A DNA stretch of 64,000 bases from Promethearchaeota archaeon. GTDB taxonomy: Archaea; Asgardarchaeota; Lokiarchaeia; Sigyniarchaeales; SOKP01. Below are positions 39,903 through 43,782 of the stretch, one piece after another. Numbering within the stretch: the first letter of the stretch is position 1; each line of letters starts with the position of its first letter. Location: NCBI GenBank assembly GCA_019894975.1, contig JAGXNO010000005.1, forward strand, positions 59,116-123,115. The letters run 5' to 3'. The notes under the pieces were generated by a model. It did no database searches, had not been told where the DNA came from, and worked only from the letters and a program-made list of their open reading frames with translations. The position numbers were made by a program, and so were the translations under genes.

Positions 39903-41927
39903 ATGTCAGATCAAATTTGCCGATTTTGTCAAAGGTATGTTCAGTTGTCTTACTATTGTGAAGAATGCGGTGCTAATTGTTGTTCTGACTGTTTACACGA
40001 AAAAAAAGTTGACTTCTATGTATGTCAAGATTGTAATTCAAAAAATATAGAAATTTTTGATTCAGAAAAGAAGAAAGTATGTAAAGATTGCGGTCATGAA
40101 AACATAATAAAGATACATCAACCACTAAAATCATGTCCAAAATGTGGATCTCATAAAATTATTAATATATATGAAAAAAAGGAAGATTTAGAAAAAGAAT
40201 TCTTAGAATTGATTAAAAATTCTCGATTATTTATAAGCCCCCTGAGGGAAGCTTTAGATGAGTTACTTGTTCTTCAAACAGACTTAAAAAAGGCAAGAGA
40301 TCCCCCTATTAGATGCTATCATTTTCCAAAAATGGAATCAGATCTATTAGCTCTTTTTAAATTGTTTGCTTATGTGCAAAATACATTATTTGATAAAGTT
40401 AATGCACACTTTCATCAAATTGTTTTATATAAAGAATATTTTTTTGATATTTATGCTCAACCAAATTCAAATATAACTATTATAGAGGGTATCTTTGAGA
40501 ATCTTTTAAGGAGTTATAATTCTATCAATGATTTTATATCTAATAATGTGAAAACGTTTAAAGATAGTATAGCTTCTTTTGAAACTAATCTTAATTTCAT
40601 AGATAAAATCAGTCATTATTTTTCAACATATAAGAAATTAATAAATCTAGCTGATAGAGAAAAGCCTGTTTATGCAATCTATGCTAAACTAGCAAATGGT
40701 CTGGACACAGATGATAAATATAAAAAAGATAGAGGAATTTTATTTATTACTAATTTAGACTTATCTTTTGTTCATGAATATGGTATGAGAAAGAAAAAAC
40801 AAGCACTTATCTTTAAGGCTCCTGTTCAAGATTTAATAAGGATCAAAGAAAAAGGAAAAGTCTTCAAAAAATTATACATTGAGTTTGAGTATGGAAAATA
40901 TGAATTTACATTACCTGCTAATTCTCTTTCTAGAGTTATAGAATATATTCTTCTGGCAAGAACTTTTGATGAATCTACAGTTTTTGATAGTAAGTCAGCA
41001 AATAACCTTCAAAGAGTTAATATCGATTTAACTGAATTAGAAAATTTCATCGAAGAATGCATTAATTCATTTTTTAGCTTAAAATGCCAATATAATAATA
41101 GTTCTCAACAAGTTAACCAATATAATCAAATATTTCCCCAAGGGGTTAATACACCTTTAAACCAGATTCAAAGTTCAATGACCCAAGTAAATAATCATGG
41201 GTTTCCATATCAACAACCAAATTCAGGGCAATTTAGAGTTAATCAACCGATCTTACAAAATCAAAATCCTCAACATCTTCAATATACTTCACCTGTTGCT
41301 CCAAATCAAATTCCCCCAGGATCAAATGACTACTTTAACTCCTTAAATCAATATCAAAAGCCTAACTCCCAACCTAGTAAATTTTTTCAACAAAACTTCA
41401 TTAACCCAAATAGATTTCAAAATTATAATCCTCAAGAAATTACCAACAATTATGGGGAAATTCTAGATGTTAATCAAAGAGAACTTCAGCAAAGAAATTT
41501 AAATTACCCCCAAGGCTACTATGCTCAATTTCCAAATCAAATTAACCCAAATTCATTAAATGAAAATAATAATTTCCAAGAATTTAACAGAAATCACCTA
41601 TCTGATTTATTTGATCCAAATAACACCCTAATACAACATTCTTATAATCATAAGAGAAAATTATTTAAATTAGATCGAGAAAAACAAGAAAAAATGCTCG
41701 AATTAGAAAGAGATAGGTACAGTCTTAAAGCAACATTAAAAAAACTTGAAAAAAAATTTGATGATGGTTCAATATCAGAATCAGAATACTTCAAAGCATA
41801 CAGAAACTTAAATAAGGAAGTTTATCTCATCGAGAATAAAATTCAAAAATTGCAGCAACGTTTAGAAGAACTAGAATCTCTTAAACAAAATAGTAGGAGT
41901 TTTGATAATAAAGGATTCTATACTTAG
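39903..41927 (+). CDS. Multidomain protein: Cys-rich Zn fingers, helical region, PH/GRAM-like domain, Q/N-rich region, steadiness-box-like C-terminus
   Basis: Six CxxC pairs in the first ~80 aa. GILFITNLDLSF...PVQDL..I...G...KKLYIEF PH-like pattern. C-terminal LEKKFDDGSISESEYFKAYRNLNKEVY. Confidence 0.6.
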   Translation: MSDQICRFCQRYVQLSYYCEECGANCCSDCLHEKKVDFYVCQDCNSKNIEIFDSEKKKVCKDCGHENIIKIHQPLKSCPKCGSHKIINIYEKKEDLEKEFLELIKNSRLFISPLREALDELLVLQTDLKKARDPPIRCYHFPKMESDLLALFKLFAYVQNTLFDKVNAHFHQIVLYKEYFFDIYAQPNSNITIIEGIFENLLRSYNSINDFISNNVKTFKDSIASFETNLNFIDKISHYFSTYKKLINLADREKPVYAIYAKLANGLDTDDKYKKDRGILFITNLDLSFVHEYGMRKKKQALIFKAPVQDLIRIKEKGKVFKKLYIEFEYGKYEFTLPANSLSRVIEYILLARTFDESTVFDSKSANNLQRVNIDLTELENFIEECINSFFSLKCQYNNSSQQVNQYNQIFPQGVNTPLNQIQSSMTQVNNHGFPYQQPNSGQFRVNQPILQNQNPQHLQYTSPVAPNQIPPGSNDYFNSLNQYQKPNSQPSKFFQQNFINPNRFQNYNPQEITNNYGEILDVNQRELQQRNLNYPQGYYAQFPNQINPNSLNENNNFQEFNRNHLSDLFDPNNTLIQHSYNHKRKLFKLDREKQEKMLELERDRYSLKATLKKLEKKFDDGSISESEYFKAYRNLNKEVYLIENKIQKLQQRLEELESLKQNSRSFDNKGFYT

Positions 41928-42009: not shown

Positions 42010-43029
42010 ATGGAAAGTCCCTCTACTTCTATTGTAGGAAGTTGGCCTTTAAGCCATTGCACTGAAAATATGGAAAGGATTTTTAATGATTTAATTCAAA
42101 TTGGTATCGATTTTCCATGTTATCCTCAATTAAATTCTATGATTTCTCAATTTTTATCCCCATTGACAGAAGAAATTTCCCCCTTAGAAGAAATTAACAA
42201 CAAATTTTATTTATCAGATGACTTCAAAATCCCGAAAAACCCAATAGCTTTAGAATATGGAAAATTCATTAAAAATTTTTTTGACAAACACCCAGAACTG
42301 TTAAAACAAGTTAAGGGAACTAAAGCCTGTTTAACCGGACCAATAACTTTAGCTGCTGAAATAATCTTGAAAGGTGATGTAGCGAAGGGATTAAAAGCCA
42401 GAATCTTTACAGAACCTAGAGCAATAATGGTGGATTGGATTGTAGAAAAATTAGCAGAAATTATGAAACAAGTAGGAAAAGAGTATAATAAAATGGGTAT
42501 AGATATAATTTCTATGGATGAACCTCTTTTGGGTGTTTTAATAGGAAGAAAAGTATTATTTCATTCTGAAGATTTCATTTTAGAAATTCTAAATAAATCC
42601 ATTTCAGAAATTAAATCTTTATCATCGATTCATGTGTGTGGCAGAATTAGTCCTAAATGCCGTGATATACTCCTTCAAACTAACGTGAACATATTAGACC
42701 ATGAATTTAGAACAAACGAGGAAAATTTTGATATTTTTCAAAAAGAGCATCTTACAAATAATGATAAAATATTAGCTTTAGGAACAGTTAAATCTAAGTT
42801 TTTGCCAGTAGAAGGATATGAAATCAATGATTATGTTGAAGGAATAGACTCTCTTGAAGCTTATATTCGAAAAGCTTTTAAACAATACGGTAAGGAAAAT
42901 TTAATCATTAAACCCGATTGTGGCTTCAATGCTATTAAAAACATGTTTGATGATGAGAATTTCGCTTACGAGATTACTCTTAGAAAAGTAAAAAACATGG
43001 TACTTGCTTTGAAAAGAATTATAAAATAG
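42010..43029 (+). CDS. Core (single-barrel) MetE-like methionine synthase
   Basis: SIVGSWP, KACLTGPITLA, MDEP. Zn ligands HVC...E...PDCG. Confidence 0.75.
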   Translation: MESPSTSIVGSWPLSHCTENMERIFNDLIQIGIDFPCYPQLNSMISQFLSPLTEEISPLEEINNKFYLSDDFKIPKNPIALEYGKFIKNFFDKHPELLKQVKGTKACLTGPITLAAEIILKGDVAKGLKARIFTEPRAIMVDWIVEKLAEIMKQVGKEYNKMGIDIISMDEPLLGVLIGRKVLFHSEDFILEILNKSISEIKSLSSIHVCGRISPKCRDILLQTNVNILDHEFRTNEENFDIFQKEHLTNNDKILALGTVKSKFLPVEGYEINDYVEGIDSLEAYIRKAFKQYGKENLIIKPDCGFNAIKNMFDDENFAYEITLRKVKNMVLALKRIIK

Positions 43030-43128: not shown

Positions 43129-43782
43129 TTAACTTTGTAGTTCTTTACGAAGTTTTTCAATCTCATCCTGAAGTTTTTCTTTAGATTTAACTCCAACTTC
43201 TTCTTCAAATTCTTCTCCGTATTCAGGGATATACTGCAAGTCATCTGAGGGGGCTTCTGGCATAGTTCCACCCTGATCGAGCAACATCTCTGTTTCTAAT
43301 TGATTTAGTTCATCTGTTACATCAATTGCAAGATCAATTTCCGGATCACCCGCTAAAATATCTGCTGCTTCCTCTATTTCTGCGACATAAGCTTCAGAAT
43401 CTTCAGCAATTTCCGCAACTTTAGCAGGAGAGGCTTTAGTGGCTATGTATTCTAATTCATCGCGTATCCCACTAAAAATGTCTCCAGTTGCAGAGATTAG
43501 TTGTCCCTCTTCAATTGCTTGAATTTGACGCTCTATCTTACCTCTAATGTTAGTTGTTCTATCAACTTTCGCATTATATGATTTATATTGAATGAGATAA
43601 TTTTTTGCTCGACCTTTTTCACCACGCTTTAATGCAATCTTCGCATTTTTACGACTTATTTCAGCTCGTTTACTGTAATTCCTATTTATAACATTTAATC
43701 TGTGTATGTGTCCCTTAGCCTTAGAAATCAAATCATCTTTCTCTTTTCCTTTACGTGGAAATAGCTTCTTTTTCAGACCCAT
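43129..43782 (-). CDS. ESCRT-III subunit, Snf7 (Vps20/32/60) family
   Basis: Basic N-terminal helical hairpin (AKIALKRGEKGRAKNYL...GKIERQIQAIE), acidic C-terminal half, DELNQLE, MIM2-like MPEAP. Confidence 0.8.
   Translation of the reverse strand: MGLKKKLFPRKGKEKDDLISKAKGHIHRLNVINRNYSKRAEISRKNAKIALKRGEKGRAKNYLIQYKSYNAKVDRTTNIRGKIERQIQAIEEGQLISATGDIFSGIRDELEYIATKASPAKVAEIAEDSEAYVAEIEEAADILAGDPEIDLAIDVTDELNQLETEMLLDQGGTMPEAPSDDLQYIPEYGEEFEEEVGVKSKEKLQDEIEKLRKELQS

Follow-up and report, generated by a model that had tools for sequence, protein, structure and literature searches.

The intact open reading frame at 39903..41927 (+) of the window, by which we mean the whole 64,000-nucleotide stretch of Promethearchaeota archaeon DNA analysed here, encodes a 674-amino-acid Lokiarchaeial orthologue of the Asgard protein Znr_CC_PH_SB (asCOG cog.011556). 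It is most likely a membrane-proximal ESCRT adaptor, with a probability of roughly 0.7. We describe its domain architecture, orthology, distribution and gene linkage, from which we infer the adaptor function. An ESCRT adaptor is what a sequence-only reading of the same DNA had proposed; the domain calls and a conserved linkage to snf7 support that interpretation as a predicted function, one that has already been published for Znr_CC_PH_SB, and this gene does not represent a new type of system. What is added here is a quantified Snf7 linkage, the contrast with the Vps28-paired UEV-Vps23 proteins, and an order-restricted Q/N-rich linker with two conserved motifs.

Identity of the gene and its family

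Znr_CC_PH_SB, also written Znr_PH_CC_SB, was named by Makarova et al. (mBio 2024, PMC10936438), whose passages on the family describe a likely Asgard ESCRT-I component that does not occur in eukaryotes. The architecture had likewise not been recognised from eukaryotes when only the letters were read, and the two views agree. The same passages list As_004-p_01543 as the Lokiarchaeum GC14_75 member of cog.011556, and by gene order we infer that this is Lokiarch_16740, which a 2018 listing gives as the Vps23 homologue, with Lokiarch_16760 as the Vps20/60 homologue.

The window protein has every feature by which the family is recognised, namely three Zn modules, a helical region followed by a PH domain, and a C-terminal steadiness box. 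The order of genes around it (C69 peptidase, L35Ae, Znr_CC_PH_SB, MetE, Vps20, DHQS, Mer) is that of Table S2 of PMC10936438. Identity, coverage and gene order together make it an orthologue of the Lokiarchaeum GC14_75 protein. As far as that protein is set out in PMC10936438, the two agree in architecture, from the three Zn modules through the helical region and the PH domain to the steadiness box, and in their neighbours, with L35Ae upstream and MetE and Vps20 downstream; we see no essential difference between these orthologues from two Loki-type genomes. Full-length homologues numbered 263. Among them LCGC14_0616310 (650 aa), which carries the UniRef name 'SB domain-containing protein', is 62% identical to the window protein over 100% coverage.

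A more distant relative has been studied in the laboratory. The Thorarchaeota 'SB' protein used in the yeast two-hybrid work of Hatano et al. (Nat Commun 2022, PMC9192718) is ThorAB25_08990, which we find to belong to the same family and to have the same domain order as the window protein. Steadiness-box proteins have been reported to interact with Vps28 and Vps22. As regards headpiece assembly with Vps28 and a Vps37-like subunit, what is in print is the two-hybrid work on the Thorarchaeota member and text on Loki.

C-terminal hairpin and steadiness box

The C-terminal helical hairpin that had been noticed from the sequence exists in the AF2 model, where it is built from helices 582-620 and 626-669 (41649..41924, +). 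Its best Pfam match is Vps23_core (PF09454), the steadiness-box model, with residues 592-649 (41676-41849, +) aligned to profile positions 7-64 of 64 at E 0.0025 and 18.2 bits for the whole protein, and at E 1.3e-4 and 22.4 bits when the last 100 aa were searched alone. Scores of 18.2-22.4 bits fall under the curated gathering cut-off of 26.8 bits; since canonical Asgard UEV-Vps23 proteins themselves reach only 22.2-29.5 bits, low scores of this kind are usual for the steadiness boxes of Asgard archaea. Vps23_core was matched in 34 of the 38 family members scanned (best E 3.6e-5). When a family profile was searched against the PDB, the top match was 2p22_A (yeast Vps23, ESCRT-I core), with the hairpins aligned in register, and two more Vps23 C-terminal entries stood among the 11 matches. 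The profile also retrieved canonical Asgard proteins with UEV and Vps23_core at E 4e-6 from 1.84 billion representatives, and UEV-Vps23 at E 1.7e-13 to 8e-9 when single genomes were searched.

The hairpin had been proposed to be of the kind shared by Vps23, Vps28 and Vps37. The Vps23 part of that proposal stands as a sub-threshold top match; similarity of the C-terminus to the Vps28 and Vps37 hairpins was not detected. A fold search (VIA), for its part, failed to bear out ESCRT-I similarity and returned generic helical hairpins only: a designed TM hairpin, LipC, CT398, Asgard ESCRT-IIIB and CHMP2A/3. The modelled fold of the hairpin is thus not discriminating, and for this reason the steadiness-box call is carried by the sub-threshold sequence profiles. 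SHOCT (PF09851), named earlier as an alternative identity of this region, was not among the Pfam matches of the last 100 aa, even with the E limit relaxed to 10, nor among those of the 38 scanned members at E up to 0.1. The CdvA Pfam model gave a weaker, second-tier match on the hairpin (E 0.013-0.023), and an NCBIfam search yielded nothing useful.

Eukaryotic and Asgard Vps23/TSG101 resemble the window protein in placing a Vps23_core-type hairpin at the C-terminus after a low-complexity linker. The window protein, however, lacks both the UEV domain and the long coiled-coil stalk; where the UEV would stand, it carries Zn fingers together with a helical and a PH domain.

Linkage to Snf7 and contrast with canonical Vps23

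The Snf7-family gene seen two genes away on first reading was confirmed. Located at 43129..43782 (-), it is the second gene downstream and encodes a Vps20-type ESCRT-III protein (Pfam Snf7, E 8.9e-11), the orthologue of Lokiarch_16760 and the genome's sole Snf7 Pfam match at E <=0.01; its identity draws also on Table S2 of PMC10936438 and Supplementary Data 1 of PMC9192718. It is convergent with the adaptor gene, so the two are not co-transcribed. Between them sits a MetE-like methyltransferase gene (42010..43029, +), which occurs in some genera and is missing from others, and which we do not consider part of the system.

The linkage extends well beyond the window. Of 131 genomes, 117 have the adaptor and Vps20-type Snf7 genes on a single contig, and in 115 of these 117 the two are separated by no more than 5 kb, with a median gap of 1146 bp. 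They are directly adjacent in all 33 genomes of one genus (g12; median gap 52 bp), and a Snf7 gene lies within 250-2300 bp of the adaptor gene in four of five distant Asgard families. Synteny with snf7, suggested earlier as a check, is therefore conserved across Asgard genomes. The Thorarchaeota relative follows the same pattern, with ThorAB25_08990 adjoining the ESCRT-III gene ThorAB25_09000 (PMC9192718).

Linkage to Vps28 presents a different picture. Vps28 and Vps22 are encoded elsewhere in the window genome. Pfam searches of that genome showed four short E2-like UQ_con ORFs and turned up neither a UEV nor a second Vps23_core match; the adaptor protein itself has no Pfam match to UEV or UQ_con. 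As the only detectable steadiness-box protein, the window adaptor probably also takes over the role of the canonical UEV-Vps23 that the genome lacks. In other Asgard lineages the canonical protein coexists with the adaptor and pairs with Vps28: four distant genomes have Vps28 directly after the UEV-Vps23 gene, two of them with EAP30 as well, and wherever canonical UEV-Vps23 exists it is that gene, and not the adaptor gene, which shares an operon with Vps28 and Vps22. Tight phyletic co-occurrence of the adaptor family with Vps28 was not found. Among the 89 genomes of families f31-f33, 84 encode the adaptor and only 10 gave a Pfam VPS28 match; in families f13, f15 and f16 Vps28 is nearly universal and the adaptor nearly absent.

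This distribution speaks for a rival reading in which the protein would belong to a separate, CdvA-like module and not to an ESCRT-I in the eukaryotic sense, with the PH domain replacing the PRC barrel as membrane anchor and the hairpin recruiting the neighbouring ESCRT-III directly or via Vps22, bypassing Vps28. The adaptor gene is linked to Snf7 and not to Vps28, and sits beside Snf7 genes in the four distant genomes that keep UEV-Vps23 with Vps28; the family is common in f31-f33, where Vps28 mostly goes undetected. By locus tags, the Thorarchaeota member adjoins ESCRT3A, Vps4, Vps25 and Vps22. Crenarchaeal CdvA is likewise a membrane-binding adaptor with an SB/CdvA-type hairpin and a gene beside ESCRT-III, and homology of the SB and CdvA hairpins has been proposed (10.1101/2023.07.25.550441, and in the relevant passages of PMC10936438); the second-tier CdvA match on the hairpin counts on the same side. 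CdvA, however, contains a PRC barrel and contacts the winged helix of CdvB through its E3B peptide; the window protein lacks the barrel, and its match to the CdvA model is weak (E 0.023), with Vps23_core scoring above CdvA in nearly all family members. In the published two-hybrid text an SB protein is reported to interact with Vps28 as well as Vps22, and the window genome has a Vps28 for which there is no other SB partner. We regard the CdvA-like alternative as possible but unlikely, and continue to favour the ESCRT adaptor.

N-terminal zinc module

Residues 1-88 (39903..40166, +) form a Zn-binding module with three predicted Zn sites. The six CxxC pairs reported for the N-terminus are indeed there, at residues 6, 19, 27, 41, 60 and 78, and all 12 of their cysteines are invariant among 29 diverse homologues. 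The AF2 model of the N-terminus is all-beta with a pLDDT of 86. A family profile of this region matched RING and B-box entries at E 2e-4 to 1e-3 and also Zn ribbons. A single-sequence PDB search returned weak Zn-ribbon matches only. Structure matches were weak (VIA, Z <=4.5).

The RING and B-box matches raise the prospect that the N-terminal eight-Cys unit is a cross-brace of RING/B-box type, in which case the protein would act chiefly as a ubiquitin E3 ligase tethered to membranes, or as a ligase-like regulator, with ESCRT components as its targets. The profile matches include RNF4 (E 1.8e-4), RING1B (7e-4 to 6e-3), RNF123, TRIM21, COP1 and BRE1 among RING proteins, and TRIM2 (2.5e-4) and KAP1 (1e-3) among B-box proteins; RING, B-box and ZZ domains also head the VIA results, and PGAP labels some relatives 'B-box zinc finger protein'. 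RING, CC and PH are among the domains drawn for Asgard ESCRT-I-like proteins according to the legend of Supplementary Figure 8 of PMC9192718, and in vitro the steadiness box of Vps23 is a substrate for ubiquitination by Asgard RING E3s (10.1101/2023.07.25.550441). Yet every one of the structure matches has Z <5, the all-beta model lacks the central helix of a RING, the RING His ligand is missing, and the sole Foldseek match is a zinc ribbon (the Rpb2 C-terminus, E 0.04). The N-terminal region is also taken as three Zn ribbons in the passages of PMC10936438 on the family. We consider a ligase identity very improbable.

Helical and PH domains

Three long helices follow (residues 89-132, 144-181 and 191-247; 40167..40652, +; AF2 pLDDT 83-95). 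This three-helix region, 89-247, is the 'CC' of the family name, and its last helix continues into the PH domain. The PH-fold domain (GRAM/GLUE-like; residues about 251-360, 40653..40982, +) was identified by Foldseek, VIA and conservation, and in the AF2 model comprises a beta sandwich with a C-terminal helix (255-354). It encloses the beta-rich segment at 40730-40960 that had been suspected of a GRAM/PH-like pattern. The modelled domain superposes on the Lam6 PH-like domain (Z 12.9, rmsd 2.6 over 108 aa), the MTMR2 PH-GRAM domain (Z 12.7) and the EAP45 GLUE domain (Z 10.7, rmsd 2.9, 94/99 aa) in VIA; with matches of Z 10.7-12.9 the middle domain is a PH fold. Across 29 diverse members it conserves a GxLxxT strand and basic clusters at K297-K299, K317/K319 and K322-K323, and Pfam PH_SLA1 and bPH_3 were matched in relatives. 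Two further helices (363-371 and 377-408; 40983..41114, +) follow it in the AF2 model.

A DH-PH RhoGEF reading of the helical and PH region was considered and is not favoured. DH-PH entries lead the Foldseek results (E 1.7e-5), with an rmsd of about 20 A; in VIA they also come first, with Z 11-13.4 over 127-208 aligned residues at rmsd 3.3-13.8. Superposition is limited to the PH domain and some of the helices, there are three helices and not a DH bundle, and no RhoGEF Pfam match was found. We treat the modelled region as an instance of the common arrangement in which a helix runs into a PH domain.

A likeness to yeast Vps36 of ESCRT-II, in which a GRAM-like PH fold and zinc fingers likewise occur in one protein, had been drawn from the sequence and holds in part. 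Both kinds of domain are present and GLUE is matched, although Lam6 and the MTMR2 GRAM domain fit slightly better than the EAP45 GLUE; the fingers, however, lie at the N-terminus, whereas those of the yeast protein interrupt its PH domain, and unlike Vps36 the window protein has no Pfam match to the EAP30 winged helix.

Q/N-rich linker

Between the folded parts and the hairpin lies a disordered Q/N/P/Y-rich linker of 178 aa (residues 405-582; 41115..41648, +), delimited by an AF2 pLDDT <50 and by composition. It is 38% Q+N and 54% QNPY, against 11% and 18% in the remainder of the protein, and 9% of its residues are charged. At 39 Q+N per 100-aa window it is the maximum of the genome (2310 ORFs of at least 200 aa), in which only four ORFs reach 30; the other three are one coiled coil and two NosD beta-helix proteins. 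Since the ORF is the genome extreme and the other high-Q+N ORFs are not disordered tracts, an origin as a by-product of 30% GC was rejected. The sequence-only reading had called the linker prion-like: a long, disordered, Q/N-rich and charge-poor tract is present, and 'prion-like' describes its composition only.

Mean identity of homologues to the window protein is 0.30 in the linker, compared with 0.62-0.77 in the folded parts, and two conserved motifs stand out in homologue set A1. Motif 1, FFxQNxxxPNRxQNY (41382..41426, +), has invariant F494, Q497, Q506 and N507, and motif 2, NHLSDLF (41592..41612, +), has invariant H565 and F570. The long Q/N linker was found only in the order to which the window genome belongs. 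The linker of ThorAB25_08990 is short, judged by analogy with a relative from family f31 (L035), which has about 50 aa in place of 178 and lacks the Q/N tract and both motifs. A literature search for earlier descriptions of the Q/N linker returned nothing specific, and the passages of PMC10936438 on the family carry no comment on it or its two motifs and no quantified Snf7 linkage.

Discussion

The domain calls hold and the linkage to snf7 is strongly conserved, and what the sequence-only reading had itself set down as evidence to the contrary was consequently not found. The suggestion that the hairpin is a generic or SHOCT-like coiled coil, on a Zn-finger/PH scaffold unrelated to ESCRT whose proximity to snf7 is a historical accident, has behind it a fold that fits many unrelated helical hairpins (Z about 10-11), a family-profile match to a DUF4062+TIR protein (P0255) with a similar terminal hairpin, a weak SHOCT match (E 0.006) in one small relative and the Vps23_core score under its cut-off, but is scarcely credible in view of the Snf7 linkage in 115 of 117 genomes and in distant families, the recurrence of Vps23_core as the top Pfam match with no SHOCT for the window protein, the profile bridge to bona fide UEV-Vps23 proteins and the published two-hybrid interaction of a family member (PMC9192718).

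As an ESCRT adaptor, the protein would sit on an anionic membrane surface through its PH domain and the conserved Lys/Arg clusters thereof, while the N-terminal three-zinc module may recognise cargo or another protein, perhaps one related to ubiquitin. The Vps23-type steadiness-box hairpin would dock to other ESCRT subunits, Vps28 and/or Vps22, and this docking could nucleate the Vps20-type ESCRT-III encoded by the neighbouring gene. The 178-aa Q/N linker would serve as a flexible tether with two short docking motifs, and it may promote clustering. We offer with little confidence the further conjecture that Asgard archaea have two separate steadiness-box modules, one a UEV-Vps23/Vps28/Vps22 operon and the other an ESCRT-III-coupled PH/Zn nucleator of CdvA-like character, and that the Lokiarchaeial order has in addition acquired the prion-like Q/N linker, whose two conserved motifs would serve for docking and which would cluster the adaptor in condensate-like membrane assemblies.

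Znr_CC_PH_SB is relevant to the evolutionary assembly of the ESCRT pathway of eukaryotes, in that the combination of a PH domain and zinc fingers with an ESCRT-I-type assembly hairpin on the same chain is Asgard-specific. The Snf7 linkage, the contrast with Vps23 and the linker motifs may be of use to specialists, as handles for binding and localisation work in cultured Lokiarchaeia.

Domain architecture of the candidate ESCRT adaptor

The candidate adaptor is encoded by an intact open reading frame of 674 aa (39903-41927, + strand) in DNA of approximately 30% GC. The sequence-only reading had described six CxxC pairs, a beta-rich domain, a Q/N/P/Y-rich region and a C-terminal hairpin in this protein, and all four were recovered: the pairs at residues 6, 19, 27, 41, 60 and 78, the beta-rich domain and the hairpin where they had been placed, and the Q/N/P/Y-rich region at residues 405-582 (38% Q+N, 54% QNPY). 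An AF2 model, generated from an alignment of 38 family members, consists of an all-beta Zn module (residues 1-88), three long helices (89-132, 144-181 and 191-247), a seven-strand sandwich with a helix (255-354), two more helices reaching residue 408, a disordered linker (405-582; pLDDT <50) and a helical hairpin (582-620 and 626-669).

All 12 cysteines of the Zn module are invariant in 29 diverse homologues, with the spacing C-x2-C-x9-C-x2-C-x4-C-x2-C-x10-C-x2-C in the first part and C-x2-C-x14-C-x2-C in the second. A family profile of residues 1-95 matches RING fingers and B-boxes (E 1.8e-4 to 1e-3) and, at the last pair, zinc ribbons. When modeled separately, the module is again all-beta (pLDDT 86); its sole Foldseek match is a zinc ribbon (E 0.04), and VIA returned weak RING, B-box and ZZ rows, every Z being <=4.5. 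It has been named 'three Zn ribbons' by Makarova et al. (PMC10936438), 'RING' in a figure legend of Hatano et al. (PMC9192718) and 'B-box' by PGAP annotation.

Residues 237-360 were firmly placed in the PH fold by Foldseek and VIA-align, with matches to the PH-like/GRAM domain of Lam6 (Z 12.9, rmsd 2.6, 108 aa), the PH-GRAM domain of MTMR2 (Z 12.7), the PH domain of TBC1D23 and the GLUE domain of EAP45 (Z 10.7, rmsd 2.9, 94/99 aa). A GRAM-type GxLxxT strand and the basic clusters K297-K299, K317/K319 and K322-K323 are kept in 29 members from several Asgard families, a pattern that would be compatible with anionic membrane binding. The unit formed by the helices and the PH domain (40167-40982, residues 89-360) also resembles the DH-PH unit of the Rho GEFs Trio, Dbs and AKAP13 (Z 11-13). 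The helices were not taken for a DH domain, since only the PH domain and some of the helical region account for these scores, and the likeness probably reflects a common arrangement and not homology.

Charged residues make up 9% of the linker; the remainder of the protein contains 31% charged residues, 11% Q+N and 18% QNPY. Of the 2310 ORFs in the 3.9-Mb assembly with 200 aa or more, the adaptor has the highest Q+N count in a 100-aa stretch (39), which argues against AT-rich codon drift as the sole source of the tract. Four ORFs reach at least 30 Q+N per 100 aa; besides the adaptor, these encode two NosD-type beta-helix proteins and a coiled-coil protein. Second in Q/N richness among the genome's ORFs is locus L046 (contig C98:122259-123095), which encodes a 278-aa Q-rich coiled coil with an above-threshold match to the ATG16 coiled-coil Pfam family (E 3.8e-10). 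Across the 38-member alignment, the folded parts share a mean identity of 0.61-0.77 with the window protein and the linker one of 0.30. Linker length is 125-263 aa within the window's order and 15-50 aa in four distant families. Two conserved islands, FFxQNxxxPNRxQNY (residues 494-508) and NHLSDLF (564-570), persist across most genera in the window's family, with both gone from the sister family and beyond; they may serve as docking motifs.

The C-terminal hairpin is a probable steadiness box

The top Pfam match for the hairpin is Vps23_core, both in the whole protein (E 0.0025, 18.2 bits) and in the last 100 aa alone (E 1.3e-4, 22.4 bits). The match spans the profile end-to-end (7-64 of 64), with scores under the Pfam cut-off of 26.8 bits. 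The family profile also finds canonical UEV-Vps23 genes in four distant Asgard genomes, and since their products themselves score only 22.2-29.5 bits, the sub-threshold score of the adaptor is normal for Asgard steadiness boxes. Vps23_core was matched in 34/38 family members (best E 3.6e-5) and CdvA in 4/38, while SHOCT and Mod_r were absent from the Pfam families listed for these 38. Among 11 PDB matches of the family profile, the best was the yeast Vps23 ESCRT-I core (2p22_A, E 0.23), with the hairpin in register, and two others were Vps23 C-terminal entries. Against 1.84 billion representatives, the profile retrieved only 170 proteins, including UEV+Vps23_core proteins such as P0270 (E 4e-6), whose own Vps23_core score exceeds the cut-off. 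A fold search with the hairpin was non-discriminating.

The last 60 residues of P0255, a defence-type protein of 395 aa with DUF4062 and TIR_2, match the family hairpin profile (E 1e-7); the motif therefore occurs beyond ESCRT contexts too. P0223 (222 aa) lacks the Zn fingers and the helical domain and consists of a PH domain of bacterial type (bPH_3) with a Vps23_core-like hairpin; it is possibly a minimal PH-SB form related to the family.

The family has been published

The adaptor is an orthologue within the Znr_CC_PH_SB family (cog.011556). All homologues listed for it come from Loki-type (Promethearchaeota) MAGs, and LCGC14_0616310 (650 aa; UniRef 'SB domain-containing protein') shares 62% identity with it at full coverage. 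Makarova et al. (PMC10936438) describe Znr_CC_PH_SB as a likely ESCRT-I component whose PH domain is expected to be membrane-associated, and their Table S2 includes a Lokiarchaeum GC14_75 member (1953 nt). The GC14_75 order given there is RidA, deacylase, C69 dipeptidase, L35Ae, Znr_CC_PH_SB, MetE, Vps20 (minus strand), 3-dehydroquinate synthase and Mer, and the window has the same order from the C69 peptidase onward. A 2018 review named Lokiarch_16740 a Vps23 homologue and Lokiarch_16760 a Vps20/Vps60 homologue; from this two-gene spacing, Lokiarch_16740 would be the GC14_75 Znr_CC_PH_SB gene. Lu et al. used cog.011556 as their 'Steadiness/Vps23 box' family.

In Hatano et al. 2022 (PMC9192718), ThorAB25_08990 is the 'SB' protein in the list of sequences used. 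It has the Zn, PH and SB architecture of the adaptor, and its gene adjoins ThorAB25_09000 (ESCRT3A), 09010 (Vps4), 09020 (Vps25) and 09030 (Vps22). Yeast two-hybrid assays in that study found that steadiness-box proteins interact with Vps28 and with Vps22, and the legend of its Supplementary Figure 8 refers to Asgard ESCRT-I-like proteins with RING, CC and PH domains. The sequence-only reading of an ESCRT adaptor is supported, and its novelty is low, the family, its architecture and its ESCRT reading having been published before.

Distribution and linkage to Snf7

The family profile has matches in 297/400 genomes of the phylum, including 129/134 of the window's family and 13/14 of a sister family. 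Five distant families have single ORFs of 500-620 aa to which the N-terminal, middle and steadiness-box regions of the profile all align, and these ORFs thus have the adaptor architecture with a short linker. The family does not track Vps28 phyletically: in families f13, f15 and f16, Vps28 is near-universal and the adaptor family almost missing, and in the Thor-like families f31-f33 the adaptor family occurs in 84/89 genomes and Pfam VPS28 was detected in 10/89.

As the sequence-only reading had noted, a Snf7-family gene (43129-43782, - strand; Pfam E 8.9e-11) is the second gene downstream of the adaptor. Our linkage figures are a new quantification. Among 131 genomes listed with matches to both, the two genes share a contig in 117, and the gap is <=5 kb in 115 of these (median 1146 bp, about one intervening MetE-like gene, as in the window). 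The two exceptions among the 117 are G135 (8.6 kb) and G188 (180 kb); in the latter the genes lie on a single contig (C1: 442011-443981 and 623717-624361), and no other genome of the window's genus has such a separation, which is presumably due to rearrangement. A Snf7 gene also lies 250-2300 bp from the adaptor homologue in 4/5 distant families.

Most genera of the family have the MetE-like gene (42010-43029, + strand) between the pair. Genus g12 lacks it, its adaptor and Snf7 genes being convergent immediate neighbours in 33/33 genomes (median gap 52 bp), and so do five genomes from the window's own genus, in which both ESCRT genes likewise abut. The pattern suggests that the MetE-like gene was inserted between two ancestrally adjacent genes.

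ESCRT complement and proposed role

The window genome (95% complete) encodes Vps28 (217 aa, contig C44), Vps22 and four short E2-like ORFs; neither a UEV Pfam match nor a second Vps23_core match besides the adaptor was found in it. Locus L049 on contig C66 (1061-3430, + strand) encodes a 790-aa protein with winged-helix repeats (PCI, DDRGK and E3_UFM1_ligase Pfam matches) and a C-terminal Vps28_C-like segment (22.8 bits), of the kind that Makarova et al. (PMC10936438) report as multidomain Vps28_C proteins of Lokiarchaeia.

Architecture, orthology, distribution and gene linkage are direct observations, and the role of the adaptor can be read in two ways. Rather than an ESCRT-I subunit proper, it could be a separate CdvA-like, ESCRT-III-proximal adaptor, which is somewhat favoured by the synteny in lineages that also have canonical Vps23: the distant genomes with a Snf7-linked adaptor homologue carry a canonical UEV-Vps23 followed by Vps28, with EAP30/Vps22 too in two. 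As an ESCRT adaptor, the protein would sit on the membrane through its PH domain and basic patch, hold a partner through its Zn module and use the Q/N linker as a flexible tether, and its hairpin would dock on Vps28 and/or Vps22, upstream of the adjoining Vps20-type ESCRT-III.
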